Sequence record: OM135583.1
Source of the DNA: Escherichia phage EP01
Reading direction: 5' to 3' (one strand)
Length of the DNA: 64,000 nt
The translations under genes and the position numbers were made by a program. Numbering within the stretch: the first letter of the stretch is position 1; each line of letters starts with the position of its first letter. Positions 980 through 39,649 of this stretch are shown in pieces. The notes below the pieces were generated by a model. That model searched no databases and was not told the origin of the DNA. It was given only the letters and a program-made list of their open reading frames with translations.

Positions 980-1834
980 TCACAATGAAGAAAATTCTTT
1001 AACTAAAGCCTGTAATGAAGCCTCTATTGGATATCCATTCTTAACTAACATTTTCCTAAACATCACATGTTTAGGACGATTATATGATATCCACAATTCA
1101 TACAATTTATCTTTATTATCCCAATGATAGCCTTTTCGTCTAGATGCTATATGAGCTTTTCTAATCTCCGGATTTTTCCAACTAGCAGCTACTGAATTTG
1201 ATATAGCTATTTTATATTCAGGTTTTGATAAAGCAGCACGAACAGCCTTTTGGTGTTTAATTTTATTTTCTTCGTTATTAAACCATTCCCTTGAAGCCAT
1301 TGAAATTTTTTGTTTTGTTTTAAAATTATTTAATCTTTCTTTGTTATCTTTCCTATTTTTTGCTACTGAAAAATATTTTAATGCCCTTTCTCTAGCAGCA
1401 TTTCTATTTTGCGGATTTGAATAATACTGTTGAAGCCTTTTTGATATTGTGTCACTTACATCTTGTTTTATAAAACTATATTCAGCAGCTATTAAATCAA
1501 CTTCGGCTAAAGATAAATTTTTATATGTTTTTCCTGACATCATTCTATTTAAAGCATTTAGCATTTTTCCATTTTTACCTTTTGCTAATAAGAAGTGTGC
1601 TTTAAAATGATTAAAATGACTTAAATTAACTAAATTCCATGTAGATTTTAAATATTCAGGAAATATTGATTTAGGAAGCACGTGGTGTGCTTCCGTTTTA
1701 CCTGGAGTTTTAACAGTTGAATTCATAGAAATAAAATTAATGTAAGACTTGGCGTCTTCTTCACTCAACGCTAATTTTTCAACTAATTCCTTTATTAAAA
1801 ATTCATCATTAATGTCAAGTTTAAAATTCTTCAC
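980..1834 (-). CDS. Free-standing HNH homing endonuclease (mob-like)
   Basis: 284 aa; EAHHVLPKS...N...H HNH-type motif; basic C-terminal region; inserted between genes 47 and 46. Confidence 0.75.
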   Translation of the reverse strand: MKNFKLDINDEFLIKELVEKLALSEEDAKSYINFISMNSTVKTPGKTEAHHVLPKSIFPEYLKSTWNLVNLSHFNHFKAHFLLAKGKNGKMLNALNRMMSGKTYKNLSLAEVDLIAAEYSFIKQDVSDTISKRLQQYYSNPQNRNAARERALKYFSVAKNRKDNKERLNNFKTKQKISMASREWFNNEENKIKHQKAVRAALSKPEYKIAISNSVAASWKNPEIRKAHIASRRKGYHWDNKDKLYELWISYNRPKHVMFRKMLVKNGYPIEASLQALVKEFSSL

Positions 1835-20163: not shown

Positions 20164-20194
20164 AAAATAAAAAAGGGGACCTCTAGGGCCCCCC
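20164..20194 (-). terminator. Rho-independent terminator
   Basis: Minus strand GGGGGGCCC...GGTCCCC hairpin followed by TTTTTTATTTT; just downstream of stop of 20206..20691. Confidence 0.6.
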
Positions 20195-20205
20195 TTTGTG
20201 TTGAT

Positions 20206-20691
20206 TTATTCCATTTCTACTATATGCATGTTCTTTTTGCTATCAAAATATATGTTTTTAACTATTAACTCAGAATTAATTGGCAGTAAAAACTCTCTTT
20301 CATAATCTACCATACAAAGATTATCATAAAGCTTGTTAAGCTTATCATCGTCAGTTTGGCCAGATTCTTCAATTGCGATTAAATTTTCTAAAATGTCAAT
20401 CATAGCAGTCGAATAGTCAAAAACGTTTGCATTTTTTAACACTACTAAAACATTAGTCATATAGCGTTCTGCAGCAAACGTTTCAGCTATATGAGACTCA
20501 CTGCTAAAGGAAGTTATTCTTTTAAATTTGATTCTCCTATTAACTTCAAACTTATAAGATAGCACTTCCTCTATTGTAAGTCCTCTAAAAAGTATGTCTT
20601 TAATCTCAAGTTTGTCTTTAATGTAATCATTAACACGCTTATGATTAAAATCATTAATTTTGTTGCCAAGGCATTGCATTAAAATATGCAT
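20206..20691 (-). CDS. Hypothetical protein
   Basis: 161-aa ORF flanked by hairpin terminators and early promoter. Confidence 0.6.
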   Translation of the reverse strand: MHILMQCLGNKINDFNHKRVNDYIKDKLEIKDILFRGLTIEEVLSYKFEVNRRIKFKRITSFSSESHIAETFAAERYMTNVLVVLKNANVFDYSTAMIDILENLIAIEESGQTDDDKLNKLYDNLCMVDYEREFLLPINSELIVKNIYFDSKKNMHIVEME

Positions 20692-20736
20692 TGTATTCTC
20701 CTCAATTTTTAAAGAGCAATTAATTAACTACACATA

Positions 20737-20768
20737 TATTATAATATGCTTTGCGACAGAAGTAAACA
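20737..20768 (-). promoter_or_regulatory. T4-type early promoter
   Basis: GTTTAC (20767-20762), 18 bp, TATAAT (20743-20738). Confidence 0.55.
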
Positions 20769-21830: not shown

Positions 21831-22288
21831 TCAGCCTTATATTCAATAACAGGACATACTTTAGCTTTACGAGCTTTTAAAAATTCGACGATAATAGATT
21901 TCTTGGGTTTAATAGGAGGTAAACCTTTATACGCCCTATCAATATTTTCTACATGTAAAGCATAATCCTTTTTCCATTTATAATCTTTATATTTTTCATG
22001 TAGTTGTGCAGGAATAACAAATGAACCAATAATAAGTAAAACAAGCAAAATGGCAAGTATAAATGCTGATGGAATAAGAGTCCATAAACTACCAAAAATA
22101 AGCCATTTCTGCATGATTTCTGCGCAGATGATAGTTAGACCTGCGAGTATAGTACATCCGAAAAAAGAAACGAAAAATGTAGGAATAACAATAGACCAAA
22201 AATATGCACACAGTGTCTTAGGTCGTTTCCATTCATCATTAAACATTTTGAATAATTTATAGTGCCAAGAGCTTTCATTAATAATCAT
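21827..22288 (-). CDS. Membrane protein
   Basis: 153 aa with at least two hydrophobic helices. Confidence 0.6.
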   Translation of the reverse strand: MIINESSWHYKLFKMFNDEWKRPKTLCAYFWSIVIPTFFVSFFGCTILAGLTIICAEIMQKWLIFGSLWTLIPSAFILAILLVLLIIGSFVIPAQLHEKYKDYKWKKDYALHVENIDRAYKGLPPIKPKKSIIVEFLKARKAKVCPVIEYKAE

Positions 22289-22290
22289 AA

Positions 22291-22812
22291 TTATCCTTTC
22301 ATTGAAGGTGTAACAGTTGTTAAATACTTAATCATAGCTTCAGCTTCTGATTTTGATAATGAAATTTCTCCATTGTTTTGACGAATAGAAATAAAATCCG
22401 GATGACGGTCACCACCAGCTTTTAAAACACACATATAAGTATCAGTTTCATCTTCAATATCTGAAATGATTGAAGCAGTTCCGCATGAATGTGGTTTTTG
22501 ATAAATCAATACAGCTTTTCTTCCGCCATTTGACTGTTCATAAACTTTTAACACATCAAACAAATCACTTCTTTTATCAATAGCTAAAATGTTATTTTCA
22601 TCTTCAATGTTAAATCCTTCGGATACTTCATAAAGTGTCACCCATAAATCACCGATGTCAATAACAGCATTTACTTTTCCATGACTTTCAAGAGCACGGC
22701 AAATTTTCTTGATTTCGTCATAACTCATTTTAATAATATCATCTCCTTGAATAAGGAAGATGTCATTTTTAAATTCAACACGAATTAAACCGCTTTCACT
22801 TGAAATAAACAT
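22291..22812 (-). CDS. Hypothetical protein (tandem paralog A)
   Basis: 173 aa; C-terminus SKSEAEAMIKYLTTVTPSM similar to next gene. Confidence 0.6.
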   Translation of the reverse strand: MFISSESGLIRVEFKNDIFLIQGDDIIKMSYDEIKKICRALESHGKVNAVIDIGDLWVTLYEVSEGFNIEDENNILAIDKRSDLFDVLKVYEQSNGGRKAVLIYQKPHSCGTASIISDIEDETDTYMCVLKAGGDRHPDFISIRQNNGEISLSKSEAEAMIKYLTTVTPSMKG

Positions 22813-25292: not shown

Positions 25293-25334
25293 ATATACCC
25301 CTTTAGTTAGATAAACCTATTTATAACTTTTGTA

Positions 25335-25916
25335 CTAACCAAGCTTTTTAGTTAATTCATTCCAATGTTTTCTACACAAAGAAACATAAATTTCATCACC
25401 AATACAGATTTGATCACCTTCTTTAACTGGTGTTCCATCTTCCATTAATCGAGCTGTCATAATCGCTTTTTTACCGCAATGACAAACTGCCTTCAGTTCA
25501 ATAAGTTTATCTGCAATCGCCAAAAGTTCTTTAGAACCTTCAAATAATTTTCCGGCGAAATCAGTCCTTAGACCATAAGCCATAACAGGAACATTATATG
25601 TATCGACAATTCGGCTTAATTGATGCACCTGTTCAGTTTTTAAAAACTGTGCTTCATCTACAAATACACAATGAATATCTTTTTGTGCTTCAGCCCATTT
25701 ATAGAACTCAAAAATATCCATATCATCTGTAATAATATTCGCTTCCTGTTTAATTCCAATGCGAGAAACGACTTCACAGACAGAATCGCGAGTATCAATA
25801 GCAGGCTTAAGAACTAATACACTCATTCCACGTTCTTTATAATTATGCGCAGCAGTCAAAAGAGAAGCAGATTTTCCAGCATTCATTGCTGCATAAGTAA
25901 AAATTAAACTCGCCAT
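25335..25916 (-). CDS. tk: Thymidine kinase
   Basis: 193 aa (T4 Tk length); P-loop AAMNAGKS; zinc site CHCG...C. Confidence 0.92.
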   Translation of the reverse strand: MASLIFTYAAMNAGKSASLLTAAHNYKERGMSVLVLKPAIDTRDSVCEVVSRIGIKQEANIITDDMDIFEFYKWAEAQKDIHCVFVDEAQFLKTEQVHQLSRIVDTYNVPVMAYGLRTDFAGKLFEGSKELLAIADKLIELKAVCHCGKKAIMTARLMEDGTPVKEGDQICIGDEIYVSLCRKHWNELTKKLG

Positions 25917-25917
25917 C

Positions 25918-26106
25918 TTAGTCCTTAGTTAAATTTTCTAAATATGTTTCTAAATCATTTTCAGCTTTATCGATAGATTTTACTAATTCGTAGTATGTTT
26001 CAGCATCTCCATAATCCGAAGCCAATTCAAAAGATAAATCTCGTTCTAAACTAATAATTTCGCTGATTAAAAATCGTATTTCATTCTTTTGTTCGCGAGT
26101 AATCAT
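25918..26106 (-). CDS. Hypothetical protein
   Basis: 62-aa ORF downstream of tk. Confidence 0.5.
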   Translation of the reverse strand: MITREQKNEIRFLISEIISLERDLSFELASDYGDAETYYELVKSIDKAENDLETYLENLTKD

Positions 26107-26309
26107 AAGGAATTTATATAATCAATAAGTTCTTGTTCTTTATCGTCGAAATCTTTACACAGTTCTTCGTATTCGTCGGTATTAAAAGGACCGCATTCAT
26201 CGCAAACTTTTTCCAATTCACTATTTTTATCAATAACTTCGTGAATAAGAGAAAACAGTCTGTCTTTTTGTTCTTTACTTAAACTCATAACCATGTAACC
26301 TTTAAGCAA
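26103..26309 (-). CDS. Hypothetical protein
   Basis: 68-aa acidic ORF. Confidence 0.5.
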   Translation of the reverse strand: MLKGYMVMSLSKEQKDRLFSLIHEVIDKNSELEKVCDECGPFNTDEYEELCKDFDDKEQELIDYINSL

Positions 26310-26497
26310 TATTCTTCTACATGTTGTTTACGACCTTTCCTATCAATAAAGGTATATTCAACGAATGTTCCAATATAGTCTTTATCTACATCATGTGGAC
26401 TATTAATTGGGCATTTAGTACGGCAAATGCGTTCCCATTGACGAATAATTTCCGCTTTATTTTTAGGGTCAAACGGATGCGGGTAATGTGCTTTCAT
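26285..26497 (-). CDS. Hypothetical protein
   Basis: 70-aa ORF. Confidence 0.5.
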   Translation of the reverse strand: MKAHYPHPFDPKNKAEIIRQWERICRTKCPINSPHDVDKDYIGTFVEYTFIDRKGRKQHVEEYCLKVTWL

Positions 26498-26948
26498 AAT
26501 CCACCACTATTAAATCAATATCAGGAGTAAACATGTCGATTAATTTAGAAACCTTATCCCAATCGCCTCCAGCAATACCGCAACCTATGCGTGGAATGTA
26601 AATTACTGGTTTAAACAAAAGGGTTTCTGCCTGTAAATTTAATTCTATCATGCAATTTACTAAAGCACCATAATCAAGATTAGGACCCGGTTCGTATTGC
26701 GTATACAGATTATAGCATATACCAAATCCCGTAGGACTATGCTTAAAAACAATAGACATATCGCCTAATTTATCACGAGAACCGTATTCGGTAGTGGTTT
26801 TATCTATTTCTAAAATTTTGGGATAGGCTCTTGCTAATTGACCCGCTACGCCAGAGCCCATTGTGTGGAAGCAGTTGCACCCATGCGCAATAATATTACC
26901 TTGAAGAAATAGGGCGACAATATCGCCCTTGATATATTTTACAATCAT
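26469..26948 (-). CDS. Macro-domain protein (Poa1p-like, Macro_2 type)
   Basis: 159 aa; HGCNCFHTMGSGVAGQLARAYP matches the HxCNC...GxG(I/V)A signature of Poa1p-like ADP-ribose-processing macro domains. Confidence 0.7.
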   Translation of the reverse strand: MIVKYIKGDIVALFLQGNIIAHGCNCFHTMGSGVAGQLARAYPKILEIDKTTTEYGSRDKLGDMSIVFKHSPTGFGICYNLYTQYEPGPNLDYGALVNCMIELNLQAETLLFKPVIYIPRIGCGIAGGDWDKVSKLIDMFTPDIDLIVVDYESTLPASV

Positions 26949-27286
26949 CTAGTACTCAATCCTCGATTATAAGAATCTACCAAACGGTCAACCATTGAAT
27001 GACAAGCGGCTTTATCTTTCTCCTCCGCAACTGAACATTCTAAGGTATTCCACTTTTTAGCATATCGTTTTAATAAAGTATCATTTTTGTATCTGCTTGA
27101 TTTATCTCTTTCTCCGTCTTTATATGCATATATTAATTTCTGCGCAAATTCAGCTTGGCATGCTTTATTTTTCCCGCAATAATCCGCGGCAGTACGGTTT
27201 ACATACTCTCTAACTTCAGAATATGATATATCTGCTAACGCAGAAAATGAAATTAATCCTACACATAAAACCAAAATTTTAGTCAT
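26945..27286 (-). CDS. Secreted protein (signal peptide)
   Basis: 113 aa; MTKILVLCVGLISFSALA signal-like N-terminus. Confidence 0.6.
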   Translation of the reverse strand: MTKILVLCVGLISFSALADISYSEVREYVNRTAADYCGKNKACQAEFAQKLIYAYKDGERDKSSRYKNDTLLKRYAKKWNTLECSVAEEKDKAACHSMVDRLVDSYNRGLSTR

Positions 27287-27824
27287 TTACTATTTCCAGT
27301 AGTTTATTATTTTTAAGGTAGTTAGCCTTTTCTAGGACTTCAGAAGCATATTTAGAACCTGCTTTAACATTCCATCCCGAATTATAAGAGGATATTGCCT
27401 TTCTTATATCGCCCTTATGTATATTTAACCAATAAGAAAGTTCAATGTACGCCCAGGAAGCTGAATTGGACCGTTTATTCAACATTCTTTTTATTTCGGC
27501 ATCGGTCATATTATAACCAAGTTCCTTAACTCTTGCTCGCATAGTCGGCAAATAATTTTGGAACATTCCATAGGCATGATGCTTTGGTTTAGATTTTAAA
27601 TTAACTCCGGCAGAGCTTTCTTGCCATAAAATAGCAGCCATTATATGACCTAATCCGCTCTTGTGGATATTTTTGTGTGTTTTATATTTTCCATCCTTAG
27701 AAAATTGTTCCCCGAATTGATACGCGTAACGCATGTTATCGAGTTGGACATTACTGAAAGTATGCTCGGAGCTATGTGCCATCATAGAAATGGCCAATAG
27801 ACCAGCGAGTAGTGCTTTTCTCAT
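27279..27824 (-). CDS. Lytic transglycosylase-like protein (SLT domain) with signal peptide
   Basis: 181 aa; signal-like N-terminus MRKALLAGLLAISMMAHS; AILWQESS catalytic-type motif. Confidence 0.65.
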   Translation of the reverse strand: MRKALLAGLLAISMMAHSSEHTFSNVQLDNMRYAYQFGEQFSKDGKYKTHKNIHKSGLGHIMAAILWQESSAGVNLKSKPKHHAYGMFQNYLPTMRARVKELGYNMTDAEIKRMLNKRSNSASWAYIELSYWLNIHKGDIRKAISSYNSGWNVKAGSKYASEVLEKANYLKNNKLLEIVND

Positions 27825-27831
27825 GCTTACC

Positions 27832-28293
27832 TCATTGAGTTTTAATTACTGCTTTAGAAGCCTTTCCTGGTAAACGACGACTGTTGATAATTGCCATCCT
27901 GCACTGAAGTGACGGGTCTTTGAACTTCGCATTAGGTTTACAAACTGTAAATCCAAGCCAAAGATTTCCATCTGTGATTTCTAAACGTCCAGGACGATAT
28001 TCAACCCCATCAATAAAATCCTCATCAATGTCAGGACGTGGAGGCATACTCAGGAATTCATTAACTTCTAAAACGTGGTCTTTTATTTTATGGAATAATT
28101 CAAAAACATATGTCTCATCAATCTCCCGTTGAATTGCACGATCAAGAAGATGCTGAGAATATTTTAGATGAAACGATGAGACCCCTGCTGCTTTTGATGC
28201 CTCACGAATCTCATTGTTAATTTGACGAAACTCCGACTCAAAGTGACGACGGAGCTTATTTCGACGGATAAAAACTTCTGTGTTGATAGTCAT
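27832..28293 (-). CDS. regB: Site-specific endoribonuclease RegB
   Basis: 153 aa (T4 RegB length); position after tk; classical early promoter directly upstream. Confidence 0.8.
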   Translation of the reverse strand: MTINTEVFIRRNKLRRHFESEFRQINNEIREASKAAGVSSFHLKYSQHLLDRAIQREIDETYVFELFHKIKDHVLEVNEFLSMPPRPDIDEDFIDGVEYRPGRLEITDGNLWLGFTVCKPNAKFKDPSLQCRMAIINSRRLPGKASKAVIKTQ

Positions 28294-28319
28294 GTTATTC
28301 TCCTCTTAACTGATAGAAA

Positions 28320-28351
28320 AATTATACCACAGTCAAGAGGAAAAGTAAACA
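28320..28351 (-). promoter_or_regulatory. T4-type early promoter of regB
   Basis: GTTTAC (28350-28345), 18 bp, TATAAT (28326-28321), then GAGGAGAA SD before regB ATG. Confidence 0.7.
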
Positions 28352-30395: not shown

Positions 30396-30524
30396 TTCTG
30401 TATTTACCCATTACCGCACTTGGGCTCGACCTTATTACAGGTTGGCGGGAATCCCTCACAGAATTATGAGGTCCAGCTTGTTCCCATGTTATTTGAATGT
30501 AAATAGGCCTAAGTATAGGCCTTA

Positions 30525-31103
30525 TTAATTACCACGGGCTGCATTAGCAACGGCATAAGCGTACTGAACATTAGCGTCCTTAAACGTACCTTTAGAGGTA
30601 TCTATTTCTGCCTTAAAGCCGCCTTTAGCCATAACATCGGCAAATTCTTTACGGAAAGCCATTGCATCAAGACCTTTCCATGATGATTTGTGCTTGGCGA
30701 ATTCAAGACCAGCGTAGTTGACAGCCTTAGCTAATTTATTATCAATGACCCATTTACCGGCTTTAGGCACAAACTTCGGACCTTTTTGTTTAGAGAACAG
30801 TTTTAAATTCCAGCGACGAAGATCACTGTCGGCTTTAACAAAAGCTGCGTCTAAGTTACTAGCAACAACATCTTCAATATGAGCAAATTTAAGTCCGTCA
30901 ACTTCAATATTTAGATCGTTACGCCAGCGAAGTCCTTCCCAAGCGAAAGCTTTAAAGTCAGAAGCTTTTGTGGCTAGATATCGTTCAAGTGGAGCAGTTT
31001 TAGGGTCAAAGCCGTTTCCGCCACGATAAGTCCACTCATCTTTATTAATGCCTTTGGCCTTTACTACAGAAGCTTCAGCAATAAATTCTTGATACGTTTT
31101 CAT
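30525..31103 (-). CDS. ipIII: Internal head protein with capsid-targeting sequence (IPIII-like)
   Basis: 192 aa; N-terminal MKTYQEFIAEA capsid-targeting sequence; size and position next to e match T4 ipIII. Confidence 0.7.
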   Translation of the reverse strand: MKTYQEFIAEASVVKAKGINKDEWTYRGGNGFDPKTAPLERYLATKASDFKAFAWEGLRWRNDLNIEVDGLKFAHIEDVVASNLDAAFVKADSDLRRWNLKLFSKQKGPKFVPKAGKWVIDNKLAKAVNYAGLEFAKHKSSWKGLDAMAFRKEFADVMAKGGFKAEIDTSKGTFKDANVQYAYAVANAARGN

Positions 31104-31129: not shown

Positions 31130-31447
31130 TTATTCTTTAGGGAAGTTTTTAGAGTATGCGTCATAAAGTTTATTACCGATGCGTCGGAAAACTCTAGCTG
31201 CAAAACGGTTTTCAGGGTTTTTAATCATGATTTGCATCATGTAAGTTCCTGCATCCGAAAGAGCTTCTTCATAGTACCCATTAATTTCTTTAAGAGTCCT
31301 ACGTTTACCACCAGGACCATCAACAGTAATTTTCCATTTACCTGTAGAAGTGCGACTTGGCGGCTCAACTTGTTCAATCCAGATATAACCGCCTTCTACA
31401 CGTTGTCCTTGGGCAGATTCTGCAATAAATTCTTTAAACGTTTTCAT
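31130..31447 (-). CDS. ipII: Internal head protein with capsid-targeting sequence (IPII-like)
   Basis: 105 aa; N-terminal MKTFKEFIAES; own early promoter upstream. Confidence 0.65.
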   Translation of the reverse strand: MKTFKEFIAESAQGQRVEGGYIWIEQVEPPSRTSTGKWKITVDGPGGKRRTLKEINGYYEEALSDAGTYMMQIMIKNPENRFAARVFRRIGNKLYDAYSKNFPKE

Positions 31448-32049: not shown

Positions 32050-32505
32050 TTAAAAGAGGTTGTTCATTATTCGGTAAAGTGAAGGACCCATCACATATTG
32101 CCACTGAGTACGAGGAATAAGAGCAAAAGCATCCATCTCTGGAATCATAACGCCATCTTTATTTTCAAAATAAGACTCGCAATGGCAATTTCTAAACATC
32201 TCATGCTCTACTGGAATCGTATAATAAAACAGATGTAAGTCTTTATTACTAGAATATTTAAATACACCTAGGTCTTCTAGAAGGTCTGGATTATAATTGT
32301 TAAAACCAGTCTCTTCTAAACATTCTCTTCGTGCTGCATCTAGTGCGCTTAAATCAGAATTTTCTACGCGGCCCTTTGGGATATCCCAGCGATGTGCCAT
32401 CATTCCAGGCTTACGAGAACCAGTAACCCGTCCCATGAATAAATCTTTATCTTCTGTCATAAAGATAATACCAGCTGATAATGTTTTCATTTTAATTTCC
32501 TGCAT
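32050..32505 (-). CDS. nudE: Nudix hydrolase NudE
   Basis: 151 aa; Nudix box GRVENSDLSALDAARRECLEETG. Confidence 0.9.
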   Translation of the reverse strand: MQEIKMKTLSAGIIFMTEDKDLFMGRVTGSRKPGMMAHRWDIPKGRVENSDLSALDAARRECLEETGFNNYNPDLLEDLGVFKYSSNKDLHLFYYTIPVEHEMFRNCHCESYFENKDGVMIPEMDAFALIPRTQWQYVMGPSLYRIMNNLF

Positions 32506-36725: not shown

Positions 36726-36802
36726 TGGTCGAGGCAGAAGGATTCTAACCTTCAACCAACGGATTAGAAATCCGTTGCTCTATACAATTGAGCTATGCCT
36801 CG
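36726..36802 (-). tRNA. tRNA-Arg (anticodon UCU), CCA encoded
   Basis: Hand-folded cloverleaf: acceptor CGAGGCA/TGCCTCG, anticodon loop TTTCTAA, T-loop; 5' end overlaps stop of segB ORF. Confidence 0.8.
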
Positions 36803-37470
36803 TAGTTAAAATTCATTTTTCGACCTTTAAACCATCCTTCTGGAATTGGGTCAGTTTTCTTAATACGTTTAGAAACTTTTTCATCTAATGAATGAATCCA
36901 CATCATACCAAATTGGGAATTCTTTTCACCTTGTTGGTGTTTATTTCTGGCGTGAGATTCTTTCATTTTATTAATAGTTTCAGGAGTATGGGTCTTACCC
37001 AAGAAAGATTTAGTATTTAAAAATTTCTCTCTATACTTAGGATTATCCCAAAGCTGTTTAAACCTTTCTGAACCCATTTTACGGTATTTTTCTTTAAGGT
37101 CTGGGTCGTTCTCAAATCTGATTTTAAAAGCGGCAGCTCCTTTTAAGGAAGCTTCTTTCTTTTTATCCAAATATTCTTTAGTGTTTAAATGGCCCCAACC
37201 ACCTTCACCACCTAATTTCAAATTATAAACATCAGGGCGCTTTAAAAACTCTTCAGTCACAATATTCTTTTCTGACTCAAACATAGAGGTTTTATCGTCA
37301 AAGAACTCTAATATTTCTTTAGAAAAATTTTCTATACCATACTTGTCTTGGGCTCTTTTTAATAATTTACCAGAACCCATATATCCATCATCTAAATTTT
37401 CGGTAGAATGAGCGCCTATATAGATTTTATTATTAATTTTATTTGTTATTTTATAAATGTAATGGAACAT
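36793..37470 (-). CDS. segB: GIY-YIG homing endonuclease (SegB-like) inside tRNA cluster
   Basis: 225 aa; N-terminal YIYKITNKINNKIYIGAHS GIY-YIG motif; located between tRNA-Ile and tRNA-Arg. Confidence 0.85.
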   Translation of the reverse strand: MFHYIYKITNKINNKIYIGAHSTENLDDGYMGSGKLLKRAQDKYGIENFSKEILEFFDDKTSMFESEKNIVTEEFLKRPDVYNLKLGGEGGWGHLNTKEYLDKKKEASLKGAAAFKIRFENDPDLKEKYRKMGSERFKQLWDNPKYREKFLNTKSFLGKTHTPETINKMKESHARNKHQQGEKNSQFGMMWIHSLDEKVSKRIKKTDPIPEGWFKGRKMNFNYEA

Positions 37471-37511
37471 AAATATCTCCTATTTCTAAGAGTATTTATG
37501 CTCCCAAAATA

Positions 37512-37583
37512 TGGCCCTGGGTGGAATTGAACCACCATCTGGCGATTATGAGTCGCTTGCTTGAACCTTCCAGCTACAGGGCC
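37512..37583 (-). tRNA. tRNA with CAU anticodon (T4 tRNA-Ile-like; Met not excluded)
   Basis: Hand-folded: acceptor GGCCCTG/CAGGGCC, anticodon loop CTCATAA, T-arm GGTGGTTCAATTCCACC. Confidence 0.75.
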
Positions 37584-37589
37584 TTGATA

Positions 37590-37662
37590 TGCTGATTGAC
37601 GGAATCGAACCGCCGACGTCCTCATTACAAGTGAGTTGCTCTACCTACTGAGCTAAATCAGC
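37590..37662 (-). tRNA. tRNA-Thr (UGU)
   Basis: Acceptor GCTGATT/AATCAGC, anticodon loop CTTGTAA, T-loop GGTTCGATTCC. Confidence 0.8.
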
Positions 37663-37669
37663 GAAATTA

Positions 37670-37756
37670 CGGAGGCGATAGGATTTGAACCTATGAGTCG
37701 CCGGAGCGACTGCCGGTTTTCAAGACCGGTGCATTAAACCACTCTGCCACGCCTCC
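37670..37756 (-). tRNA. tRNA-Ser (UGA), long variable arm
   Basis: Acceptor GGAGGCG/CGCCTCC, anticodon loop CTTGAAA, long variable arm, T-loop GGTTCAAATCC. Confidence 0.8.
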
Positions 37757-37758
37757 AG

Positions 37759-37832
37759 TCTCCGCGGCAGGATTTGAACCTGCGACATTCTGCTCCCAAA
37801 GCAGACGCTCTACCAAACTGAGCTACACGGAG
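37759..37832 (-). tRNA. tRNA-Pro (UGG)
   Basis: Acceptor CTCCGTG/CGCGGAG, anticodon loop TTTGGGA, T-loop GGTTCAAATCC. Confidence 0.8.
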
Positions 37833-37844
37833 TAAATTAAATTT

Positions 37845-37916
<72 letters not shown>

Positions 37917-37922
37917 AAACTT

Positions 37923-38009
37923 TGGTACGAGAAGTGGGACTCGAACCCACAAGGAAATCATTCCGCAGCATTTTAAGTGCTGTGCCTTTACCAATTTGAC
38001 CATTCTCGC
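37923..38009 (-). tRNA. tRNA-Leu (UAA), long variable arm, CCA encoded
   Basis: Acceptor GCGAGAA/TTCTCGT, anticodon loop CTTAAAA, T-loop GGTTCGAGTCC, ACCA 3' end. Confidence 0.8.
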
Positions 38010-38010
38010 G

Positions 38011-38083
38011 CTGGGAATAAAGGACTCGAACCTTTGCATCCTGGAATCAAAATCCAGTGCCTTACCAACTTGGCTAATTCCCA
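38011..38083 (-). tRNA. tRNA-Gln (UUG)
   Basis: Acceptor TGGGAAT/ATTCCCA, anticodon loop TTTTGAT, T-loop GGTTCGAGTCC; tRNA order Gln-Leu-Gly-Pro-Ser-Thr-Ile...Arg matches T4. Confidence 0.8.
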
Positions 38084-38714: not shown

Positions 38715-38939
38715 TTATTCCGCTCCAGCAGCTTTCAAAAGCTTTTTAAGATTAGCAGTGCCACGAGCAGAAAACGTGACTTTACCATCCTTTTCACTAA
38801 TAGAGCCAGTTAACTTAGAAAGTTTATCGCTAGGAATTTTTTTAAAATCACTTAATGTACCATCAAAAGTTTTCGTAACAATTGGTAGTTCATCTTCATG
38901 TCTTTTAGCTTCAGCGATAAATTTTTGATAAGTTTTCAT
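38715..38939 (-). CDS. Internal-protein-like gene with capsid-targeting sequence (cassette 1)
   Basis: 74 aa; MKTYQKFIAEA N-terminus; own promoter cassette. Confidence 0.7.
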   Translation of the reverse strand: MKTYQKFIAEAKRHEDELPIVTKTFDGTLSDFKKIPSDKLSKLTGSISEKDGKVTFSARGTANLKKLLKAAGAE

Positions 38940-38966
38940 TTTATTCTCCTCAGTAGTTGATAGGGT

Positions 38967-38998
38967 AATAATATCACTACCCTATCTAAAAGTAAACG
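38967..38998 (-). promoter_or_regulatory. Early promoter, internal-protein cassette
   Basis: GTTTAC (38997-38992), 18 bp, TATTAT (38973-38968). Confidence 0.6.
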
Positions 38999-39007
38999 GT
39001 TTATAAA

Positions 39008-39316
39008 CTATTTTATTCCGCGTGATGCAATTGTGTTCTGCCGTTTAGCACCAGTTTGTTTAAAGTCATGATTGTCGATTTGATCGGTACGAGCAACTCC
39101 GAATGATGATTTGATTTTAGCTTTAGATCCTTTAGTTATAGAAATAAACATCTCGGAAGCCCCTTTCTTAAAGTCCGAGGCGATTACTTCAACGCCGTTC
39201 TTAGCAAGTGACCTCAGAATTGCTTCCGCATACTCATCATCAAGACCCGCTTGAGTATAAATAATGAATGTCTTTGGTGCAGCCGCTTCATTGATAAATT
39301 CTTGGTAAGTTTTCAT
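39008..39316 (-). CDS. Internal-protein-like gene with capsid-targeting sequence (cassette 2)
   Basis: 102 aa; MKTYQEFINEAA N-terminus. Confidence 0.7.
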   Translation of the reverse strand: MKTYQEFINEAAAPKTFIIYTQAGLDDEYAEAILRSLAKNGVEVIASDFKKGASEMFISITKGSKAKIKSSFGVARTDQIDNHDFKQTGAKRQNTIASRGIK

Positions 39317-39345
39317 TTTATTTTCCTAATTAATTTTGATAAGGT

Positions 39346-39377
39346 AATAGTACCACAACCCTATTTAAAAGTAAACT
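39346..39377 (-). promoter_or_regulatory. Early promoter, internal-protein cassette
   Basis: GTTTAC (39376-39371), 18 bp, TACTAT (39352-39347). Confidence 0.6.
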
Positions 39378-39649
39378 CATTTTAAATAAATTGCGTATTT
39401 TTTATAACCCGCTGACTCATGACGAAGACCCTTATCATTAGCAAAACGCTCAATGTTGTTAATTTGATTCTGGTCAAGTTCAGAGATGTCAAACACGAAA
39501 TAGTTACGTTTGTTACCAACTGTTACATAGTCAGTTAAATCAATACCATATAGGTAATTGATGTTATCAATCATAGTCTTGACAGCTTTGCTAATTTTTA
39601 CTTTTTCGTTAAAAGTAGCTTCATTGATAAATTCTTTAAATGTTTTCAT
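39377..39649 (-). CDS. Internal-protein-like gene with capsid-targeting sequence (cassette 3)
   Basis: 90 aa; MKTFKEFINEAT N-terminus. Confidence 0.7.
   Translation of the reverse strand: MKTFKEFINEATFNEKVKISKAVKTMIDNINYLYGIDLTDYVTVGNKRNYFVFDISELDQNQINNIERFANDKGLRHESAGYKKYAIYLK

Follow-up and report, generated by a model that had tools for sequence, protein, structure and literature searches.

A macrodomain protein with a putative Gln-type active site at the tk.4 locus of Escherichia phage EP01, a probable eraser of DarT2 marks

In the 64,000-nucleotide stretch of Escherichia phage EP01 DNA investigated here (sequence record OM135583.1; hereafter the window, to which all coordinates refer), an open reading frame at 26469..26948 on the minus strand encodes a single-domain macrodomain protein of 159 aa, which by synteny, annotation, Pfam Macro match and AlphaFold2 model is the orthologue of T4 tk.4 (adfM). 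We consider it probable, as the best explanation of the available data, that this orthologue erases ADP-ribose placed on DNA by the host toxin DarT2 and does so by a Gln-type catalysis. The feature as such is already known, being annotated in GenBank and genetically characterised for T4; what we add is modest, namely the Gln-type active site, the non-homology with the AdfM of phage PhiKZ beyond the fold class and the sharp divergence of the allele.

The first-pass annotation had placed a macro domain gene on exactly this ORF, and the motif it quoted is present: HGCNCFHTMGSGVAGQLARAYP comprises residues 22-43 (window 26820-26885, codons read against the raw sequence). The ATG of the gene is the first start codon past an in-frame stop. 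In some GenBank records of the Shigella phages SHFML-26 and SHFML-11 (P0002) the gene starts at an internal Met30, leaving 130 aa, which probably is a mis-called start; we rejected this shorter model, because strand 1 and the invariant HGCNC motif would be removed. The vs ORF occupies 26945..27286, and its stop codon overlaps the tk.4 start at 26948 in an ATGA (26945..26948, minus strand; ORF coordinates), arranged alike in T4, by which the translation of vs and tk.4 may be coupled. At its 3' end, tk.4 overlaps the start of tk.3 by 29 nt (26469..26497, minus strand), as seen in the ORF list and in the alignment with T4 DNA. The transcribed order on the minus strand, regB>vs.1>vs>tk.4>tk.3>tk.2>tk.1>tk, is common to the window, phage UFV-AREG1 and T4. 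The description of the gene as lying downstream of tk thus holds on the plus-strand map only; in transcription tk.4 is located 5' of tk, with three small genes between them.

A megablast search with 25300-28300 retrieved 811 phage records, the best with 96-99% identity and all belonging to T4-like Tequatrovirus. The UFV-AREG1 record labels the gene 'tk.4: macro domain-containing protein', while the T4 record carries tk.4 at the same place as 'phosphatase; contains A1pp phosphatase motif', and the window protein matches PHROG 335 with E=1e-71. Synteny of vs, tk.4 and tk.3 together with full-length similarity places it in the T4 Tk.4/AdfM group. On the T4 map, the window as a whole begins at about 34 kb and reaches at least 82 kb, where the T4 sequence used for comparison ended; by extrapolation its far end would lie at about 98 kb of T4.

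The genes around tk.4 run in one direction and are tightly packed, stop codons overlapping with the next starts, and the T4 map suggests that tk.4 is expressed early, from the regB-vs-tk cluster. The best sigma-70/T4-early-like promoter match (TTTACT-17-TATAAT with TG; 28321..28349, minus strand) lies upstream of regB and, as a consensus match, is a candidate promoter of the co-directional cluster from regB to tk. Sigma-70-like sites are no commoner in the window than in shuffles (18 versus 23 expected) and MotA-box-like patterns occur at chance level (25 versus 23.9), and since promoter-like counts are at chance, we claim no promoter beyond this one match. Around the tk.4 start (111 nt), the RNA fold does not significantly exceed that of shuffles in stability (z = -1.8).

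Fold and profile allow us to state with confidence that the window protein is a macrodomain, its similarity to macrodomains being far above chance. The match to Pfam Macro (PF01661), with E=1.3e-7 and positions 2-117 of the 118 in the profile covered, reaches 32 bits, above the gathering cut-off of 22; this is the sole Pfam family found at E<=1. Among PDB chains, the protein matches BT1257 (4e-10), Poa1p (1.6e-9 over residues 3-79) and SCO6735 (8.5e-8). The AlphaFold2 model, computed from an alignment of 58 homologues, reaches a mean pLDDT of 93.9 and a pTM of 0.89; it displays the three-layer alpha/beta/alpha macro fold, on the presence of which the first reading had depended, and Foldseek against the PDB returned TARG1, Poa1p, BT1257, DarG and SCO6735, all with probability 1.0 and TM 0.7-0.8. 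A family profile compared with the PDB ranked BT1257 first (3.5e-20), followed by TARG1 (3e-16), SCO6735 (7e-16) and Poa1p (3e-14), with the DarG proteins of M. tuberculosis (4.5e-11) and T. aquaticus (5e-9) at lower ranks. The resemblance to Poa1p pointed out by the first-pass annotation is therefore real, Poa1p being among the closest solved relatives, and the profile search agrees with its proposal of a macro family; its assignment to the Macro_2 family did not stand, as PF14519 gave no match at E<=1 in the Pfam scan of the window protein. Poa1p, BT1257, TARG1, DarG and T4 Tk.4 all fall in PF01661 only and none in Macro_2, and since Poa1p itself belongs to PF01661 in current Pfam, we reject membership in Macro_2 and regard the label as a slip. 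The nearest neighbours in structure as well as in sequence are members of the TARG1/ALC1-like class, apart from the MacroD and viral types; Tk.4 is a free-standing macrodomain of this class. Conservation of the glycine-rich loops G31-S-G33 and G122-C-G-I-A-G-G128 predicts that the protein binds ADP-ribose.

Three motifs outline the putative active site. The first, H22-G23-C24-N25-C26 (26871..26885, minus strand; sequence and reference alignment), is assigned to the distal-ribose side; all 119 homologues covering the region have H22, G23, N25 and C26, and in the reference alignment H22 corresponds to H24 of SCO6735 and N25 to N27 of SCO6735 as well as N22 of DarG. The remainder of the quoted motif, FHTMGSGVAGQLARAYP (26820..26870, minus strand), comprises the glycine-rich phosphate-binding loop 1 and the next helix (residues 33-41 in the AlphaFold2 model), with G33 and A35 invariant among homologues. 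The second motif, N80-L-Y82-T83-Q84 (26697..26711, minus strand; sequence, profile and multiple alignments), contains three residues, Q84, N80 and Y82, each found in 121 of 121 homologues down to about 38% identity. In profile and MAFFT alignments, Q84 takes the position of the catalytic Lys in TARG1 (K84), DarG (K80) and PhiKZ AdfM gp104 (K78), and aligns with Gln85 of SCO6735 and the Gln of BT1257. The third, P119-R-I-G-C-G-I-A-G-G-D-W130 (26559..26594, minus strand; alignments), corresponds to the diphosphate-binding loop 2; its 'PRIGCG' signature is common to TARG1, BT1257 and SCO6735, whereas DarG-type proteins have PPLG, and P119, G122, G124 and W130 vary little or not at all. A Gln at the TARG1/DarG catalytic-Lys position combined with the Asn of the first motif (Q84, N25) places the protein in the SCO6735/BT1257 subclass. 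Mutational data from relatives underline the importance of these positions: in SCO6735, Q85A is inactive and N27S nearly inactive (PMC9411070), and N23A in PhiKZ AdfM reduces the activity (PMC13309987). Because an invariant Gln sits where DarG, TARG1 and PhiKZ AdfM have their catalytic Lys, the active-site logic of Tk.4 is, as far as alignments can tell, SCO6735-like and not DarG-like, and an active site of this type speaks for the chemistry proposed, for which no catalytic lysine would be needed.

SCO6735 of Streptomyces coelicolor and BT1257 of Bacteroides thetaiotaomicron, both Gln-type and ALC1/TARG1-like, are thus the nearest functional analogues, rather than the phosphatase Poa1p, although they share only about 25-29% identity with the window protein. 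The orphan macrodomain SCO6735 frees DNA of ADP-ribose linked to thymidine, and E. coli as well as Streptomyces are rescued from DarT by it (PMC9411070); it acts on synthetic T-ADPr and U-ADPr too. By analogy, hydrolysis of thymidine-ADP-ribose on single-stranded DNA is predicted for the window protein. Human TARG1 (OARD1), which hydrolyses T-ADPr DNA, is alike in fold (top Foldseek match, TM 0.72-0.83) and shares the PRIGCG loop and the His of the first motif, but its catalytic dyad K84/D125 is Q84/A126 here.

Assignment as an orphan DarG was considered and rejected. The NCBIfam model of DarG (NF048014) scores 27.7 bits against a cut-off of 250 and is covered at positions 2-142 of 338 only; the window protein has LYTQYEPG in place of FPTK(K/R)HW, which in DarG contains the catalytic Lys80, and PRIG in place of PPLG; it lacks the C-terminal DarT-binding domain of DarG, and its gene is flanked by vs and tk.3 of the phage, not by darT. 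Despite belonging to a different family, Tk.4 may function like DarG. The name AdfM has also been given to gp104 of phage PhiKZ, which removes DarT2 marks in vitro (Cell Reports 2026, PMC13309987). Its sequence, obtained as the translation of the construct printed in that paper, matches M. tuberculosis DarG with 9e-25 and, like DarG, contains the FPTK lysine and PPLG, marking it as DarG-type. BLASTP aligns only 23 residues of it with the window protein (E 0.001), and of its N23/K78 pair K78 aligns with Q84; as the two proteins are barely alignable, we reject their identity. It follows that the T4-type and the PhiKZ-type AdfM belong to different TARG1-like branches, and they probably are separate recruitments.

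The functional evidence comes from T4, for which protection against DarTG2 is established in the literature. Screening of T4 transposon insertions on DarTG2-carrying E. coli yielded tk.4 as the only significant hit, its clean deletion rendered T4 sensitive to DarTG2, and the gene was renamed adfM, for anti-DarT factor Macrodomain (bioRxiv 10.1101/2025.11.20.689424, November 2025 preprint). The same preprint proposes, without biochemistry, that AdfM removes ADP-ribose from DNA, and likens Tk.4 to DarG. T-even phages had been found to remain DarTG2-resistant after deletion of adfA and adfN, AdfN (gp30.3) being a NADAR enzyme specific for the guanine marks of DarT1 (PMC11257639); the T4 tk.4 phenotype fills this gap. 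The first-pass idea of an eraser of DarT DNA marks is thus in line with the T4 knock-out and was already in the literature, while no support has so far emerged for its further suggestions, scavenging of Thoeris signals and reversal of Alt, ModA or ModB modifications. It should be noted that the T4 evidence is genetic, derives from a preprint and concerns the T4 allele, and in the literature we found no enzyme assay for any Tk.4-type protein. The window allele, 58% identical, presumably shares the phenotype by analogy, and enzymatic removal of ADP-ribose from DNA is the likely mechanism. According to the mechanism proposed, DarT2 would block replication by modifying single-stranded phage DNA with ADP-ribose at N3 of thymidine; the ADP-ribose would be bound in the macrodomain cleft of Tk.4, its distal ribose positioned by the invariant Q84, itself held by the invariant N25, and hydrolysis of the thymine-ribose bond, without a catalytic Lys, would leave intact DNA and free ADP-ribose.

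Several observations speak against this explanation. Of the residues of the T4 protein that was tested, 42% are different in the window allele. Features specific to SCO6735 are not shared either: Val/Ile25 is replaced by Gly23, of the DNA-positioning lysines Lys34 is replaced by Ser32 and Lys89 by Gly88, and the mobile loop past the Gln, which is 5-6 residues longer in SCO6735, is missing. The net charge of -5, compared with +6 in SCO6735, is unexpected for a DNA-binding enzyme. Furthermore, SCO6735 also inhibits DarT without catalysis, so that protection need not be purely enzymatic.

Among the other readings, the one surviving best is that the protein erases ADP-ribose from protein or RNA, be it Glu/Asp-linked on protein, uracil-linked on RNA or left by other toxins, or that it tunes the modifications by Alt, ModA and ModB; we hold this to be unlikely as the main role, and it may well add to the removal of DNA marks instead of replacing it. 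The substrates of SCO6735 and TARG1 include Glu-linked ADP-ribose on proteins as well as uracil-linked ADP-ribose in RNA (PMC9411070), which favours it, as do the absence of the basic DNA-positioning residues of SCO6735 from an acidic protein and the occurrence of the family in many unrelated phage groups, broader than would be expected for one defence system. Besides DarTG2 sensitivity, no phenotype of T4 tk.4 has been reported, which argues against it. Alt, ModA and ModB write Arg-linked ADP-ribose, and TARG1-like macrodomains are to our knowledge not known to cleave this linkage, which also counts against an eraser of such marks.

Protection could also be brought about mainly by binding and blocking of DarT2 or by shielding of modified sites, instead of hydrolysis, which we regard as improbable. 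Three catalytically dead variants, SCO6735 Q85A, DarG K80A and TARG1 K84A, still act as inhibitors of DarT in vitro, SCO6735 being the strongest of them (PMC9411070), and the sharp allele replacement described below is a pattern expected of a protein co-evolving with a binding partner. Against it stand the single domain of 159 aa, without the dedicated DarT-binding domain of DarG, and the invariance of H22, N25, Q84 and the Gly-rich loops down to 38% identity, which argues for selection on chemistry.

We give hardly any credence to a Poa1p-like small-molecule enzyme, dephosphorylating mainly ADP-ribose-1''-phosphate or acting on other free ADP-ribose derivatives, such as ADPR signals of the Thoeris type or O-acetyl-ADP-ribose: such a role is implied by the shared HxCNC motif, in which H22 aligns with H23 of Poa1p, and by the database label 'phosphatase / A1pp motif', but this label is an inherited annotation and not a test, the sole T4 tk.4 phenotype in a genome-wide screen is DarTG2-specific, and the yeast enzyme, whose known substrate ADP-ribose-1''-phosphate is a small molecule from tRNA splicing, has a Ser at the position of the invariant Gln and a large insertion making it about 20 residues longer. 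S30 and F152 of Poa1p, which to judge from PDB entry titles were probed by its depositors, F152 by mutation, correspond to T29 and A126 here. We also know of no evident source of ADP-ribose-1''-phosphate in T4 infection, which counts against the role of a phosphatase.

Compared with T4, a divergence island spans 26460..26920, with 45-78% nucleotide identity per 60 nt and 95-100% on both sides. At the protein level, rI.-1, rI and rI.1 are 100% identical to T4, tk, vs.1 and regB 99%, vs 94% and tk.3 93%, in contrast to about 58% for tk.4; judged from this pattern, the divergence is a cassette-like allele replacement. The alignment with T4 Tk.4 (155 aa), encoded at the same locus between vs and tk.3, is gapless over 155 aa, and both proteins share every residue invariant in the family, H22, N25 and Q84 among them. 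Loop 2 reads GCGIAGGDW in the window, which is the family consensus, but GAGIGKGNW in T4, and a 13-nt indel at the 3' end gives the window allele a tail longer by 4 aa (residues 156-159, pLDDT <50). Of the phage records, 275 carry the window-type allele (>=95% identity) and many others that of the T4 type. Homologues of tk.4 were detected in 2789 of 50,697 phage records (about 5%), their carriers including Felix-O1-like, rV5-like and PAK_P4-like phages, Ackermannviridae and phages of Vibrio and Bacillus. The one bacterial locus inspected, that of a Pelagimonas homologue, showed no toxin gene beside it, the homologue being an orphan; the second homologue locus examined proved to be another T4-like phage.

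Two further observations concern the borders of the island. Within tk.4 codons 7-13 (26911-26929, minus strand), 17 nt past the stop codon of vs, there is a GC-rich hairpin (AGGGCGA-tattg-TCGCCCT) with a T-rich tail behind it. T4 has this hairpin with 100% conservation and TTTTCGCT as its tail, and the divergence island starts just 3' of the hairpin. This hairpin might be a partial terminator, an RNA-stability element following vs or a recombination boundary. Adjoining tk.4, the tk.1/tk.2 region (window 25980-26280) forms a second, milder divergence zone, Tk.1 being 89% and Tk.2 76% identical to T4; an upstream TTG start extends Tk.2 to 68 aa, compared with 61 aa for T4.

Other parts of the window differ from T4 as well. 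A 284-aa ORF with an HNH-like motif (HHVLPKS...N...H; 980-1834, minus strand) is extra between genes 46 and 46.1, while the window lacks the T4 homing-endonuclease genes mobB, mobC and mobD as well as the I-TevII intron of nrdD. The segments 20177-20762 and 21831-22794 have no blastn match in T4 32-82 kb; a 161-aa ORF is found at 20206-20691, and a 153-aa (membrane-like) and a 173-aa ORF take the place of mobD. In the stretches 30485-30508, 30525-31103, 31130-31447 and 38715-39649, T4 denV and ipII have no counterpart where they would be expected, and several small genes with the internal-protein leader MKT(Y/F)(Q/K)EFI are found instead, two near gene e (192 and 105 aa) and three where T4 has ipI (74, 102 and 90 aa); these are known hypervariable internal-protein loci, occupied by a set different from that of T4. 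Eight tRNA genes (36726-38083, minus strand) for Arg, Ile, Thr, Ser, Pro, Gly, Leu and Gln follow the T4 order, with tRNA-Ile read as Met-CAT by ARAGORN, and Rfam at gathering thresholds found tRNAs only in the whole window. About 5 kb from tk.4, a 151-aa ORF (32050-32505, minus strand) corresponds in position to T4 nudE, which the T4 record describes as a Nudix hydrolase active on ADP-ribose; as a putative NudE by position, its product could, speculatively, dispose of the ADP-ribose freed by the macrodomain.

We tentatively put forward, as an idea we ourselves find rather doubtful, that Tk.4-type proteins were recruited from orphan SCO6735/BT1257-like bacterial enzymes independently of the DarG-derived PhiKZ AdfM, and that behind the cassette-like replacement stand alleles with different targets. 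Candidates for such differing targets are DarT2 variants, direct binding of the toxin, glucosyl-hmC as opposed to plain DNA, or uracil-ADPr RNA and protein marks set by other defence toxins; if this were true, the protection spectrum of the window allele would differ from that of T4.

DarTG systems halt phages by ADP-ribosylation of DNA, and the window gene is another copy of a known counter-defence. T-even phages appear to be armed for each chemistry, with AdfA and AdfN directed against the guanine-modifying DarT1 and Tk.4/AdfM against the thymine-modifying DarT2, and in T4-type candidates for phage therapy the presence of tk.4 predicts resistance to DarTG2. Of wider interest are the Gln-type site, the use of the name AdfM for two unrelated macrodomain lineages and the hot spot of allele exchange at this locus. 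Since homologues are found in about one phage record in twenty, biochemistry on Tk.4 would annotate thousands of proteins, which up to now are labelled 'phosphatase' or 'hypothetical'.
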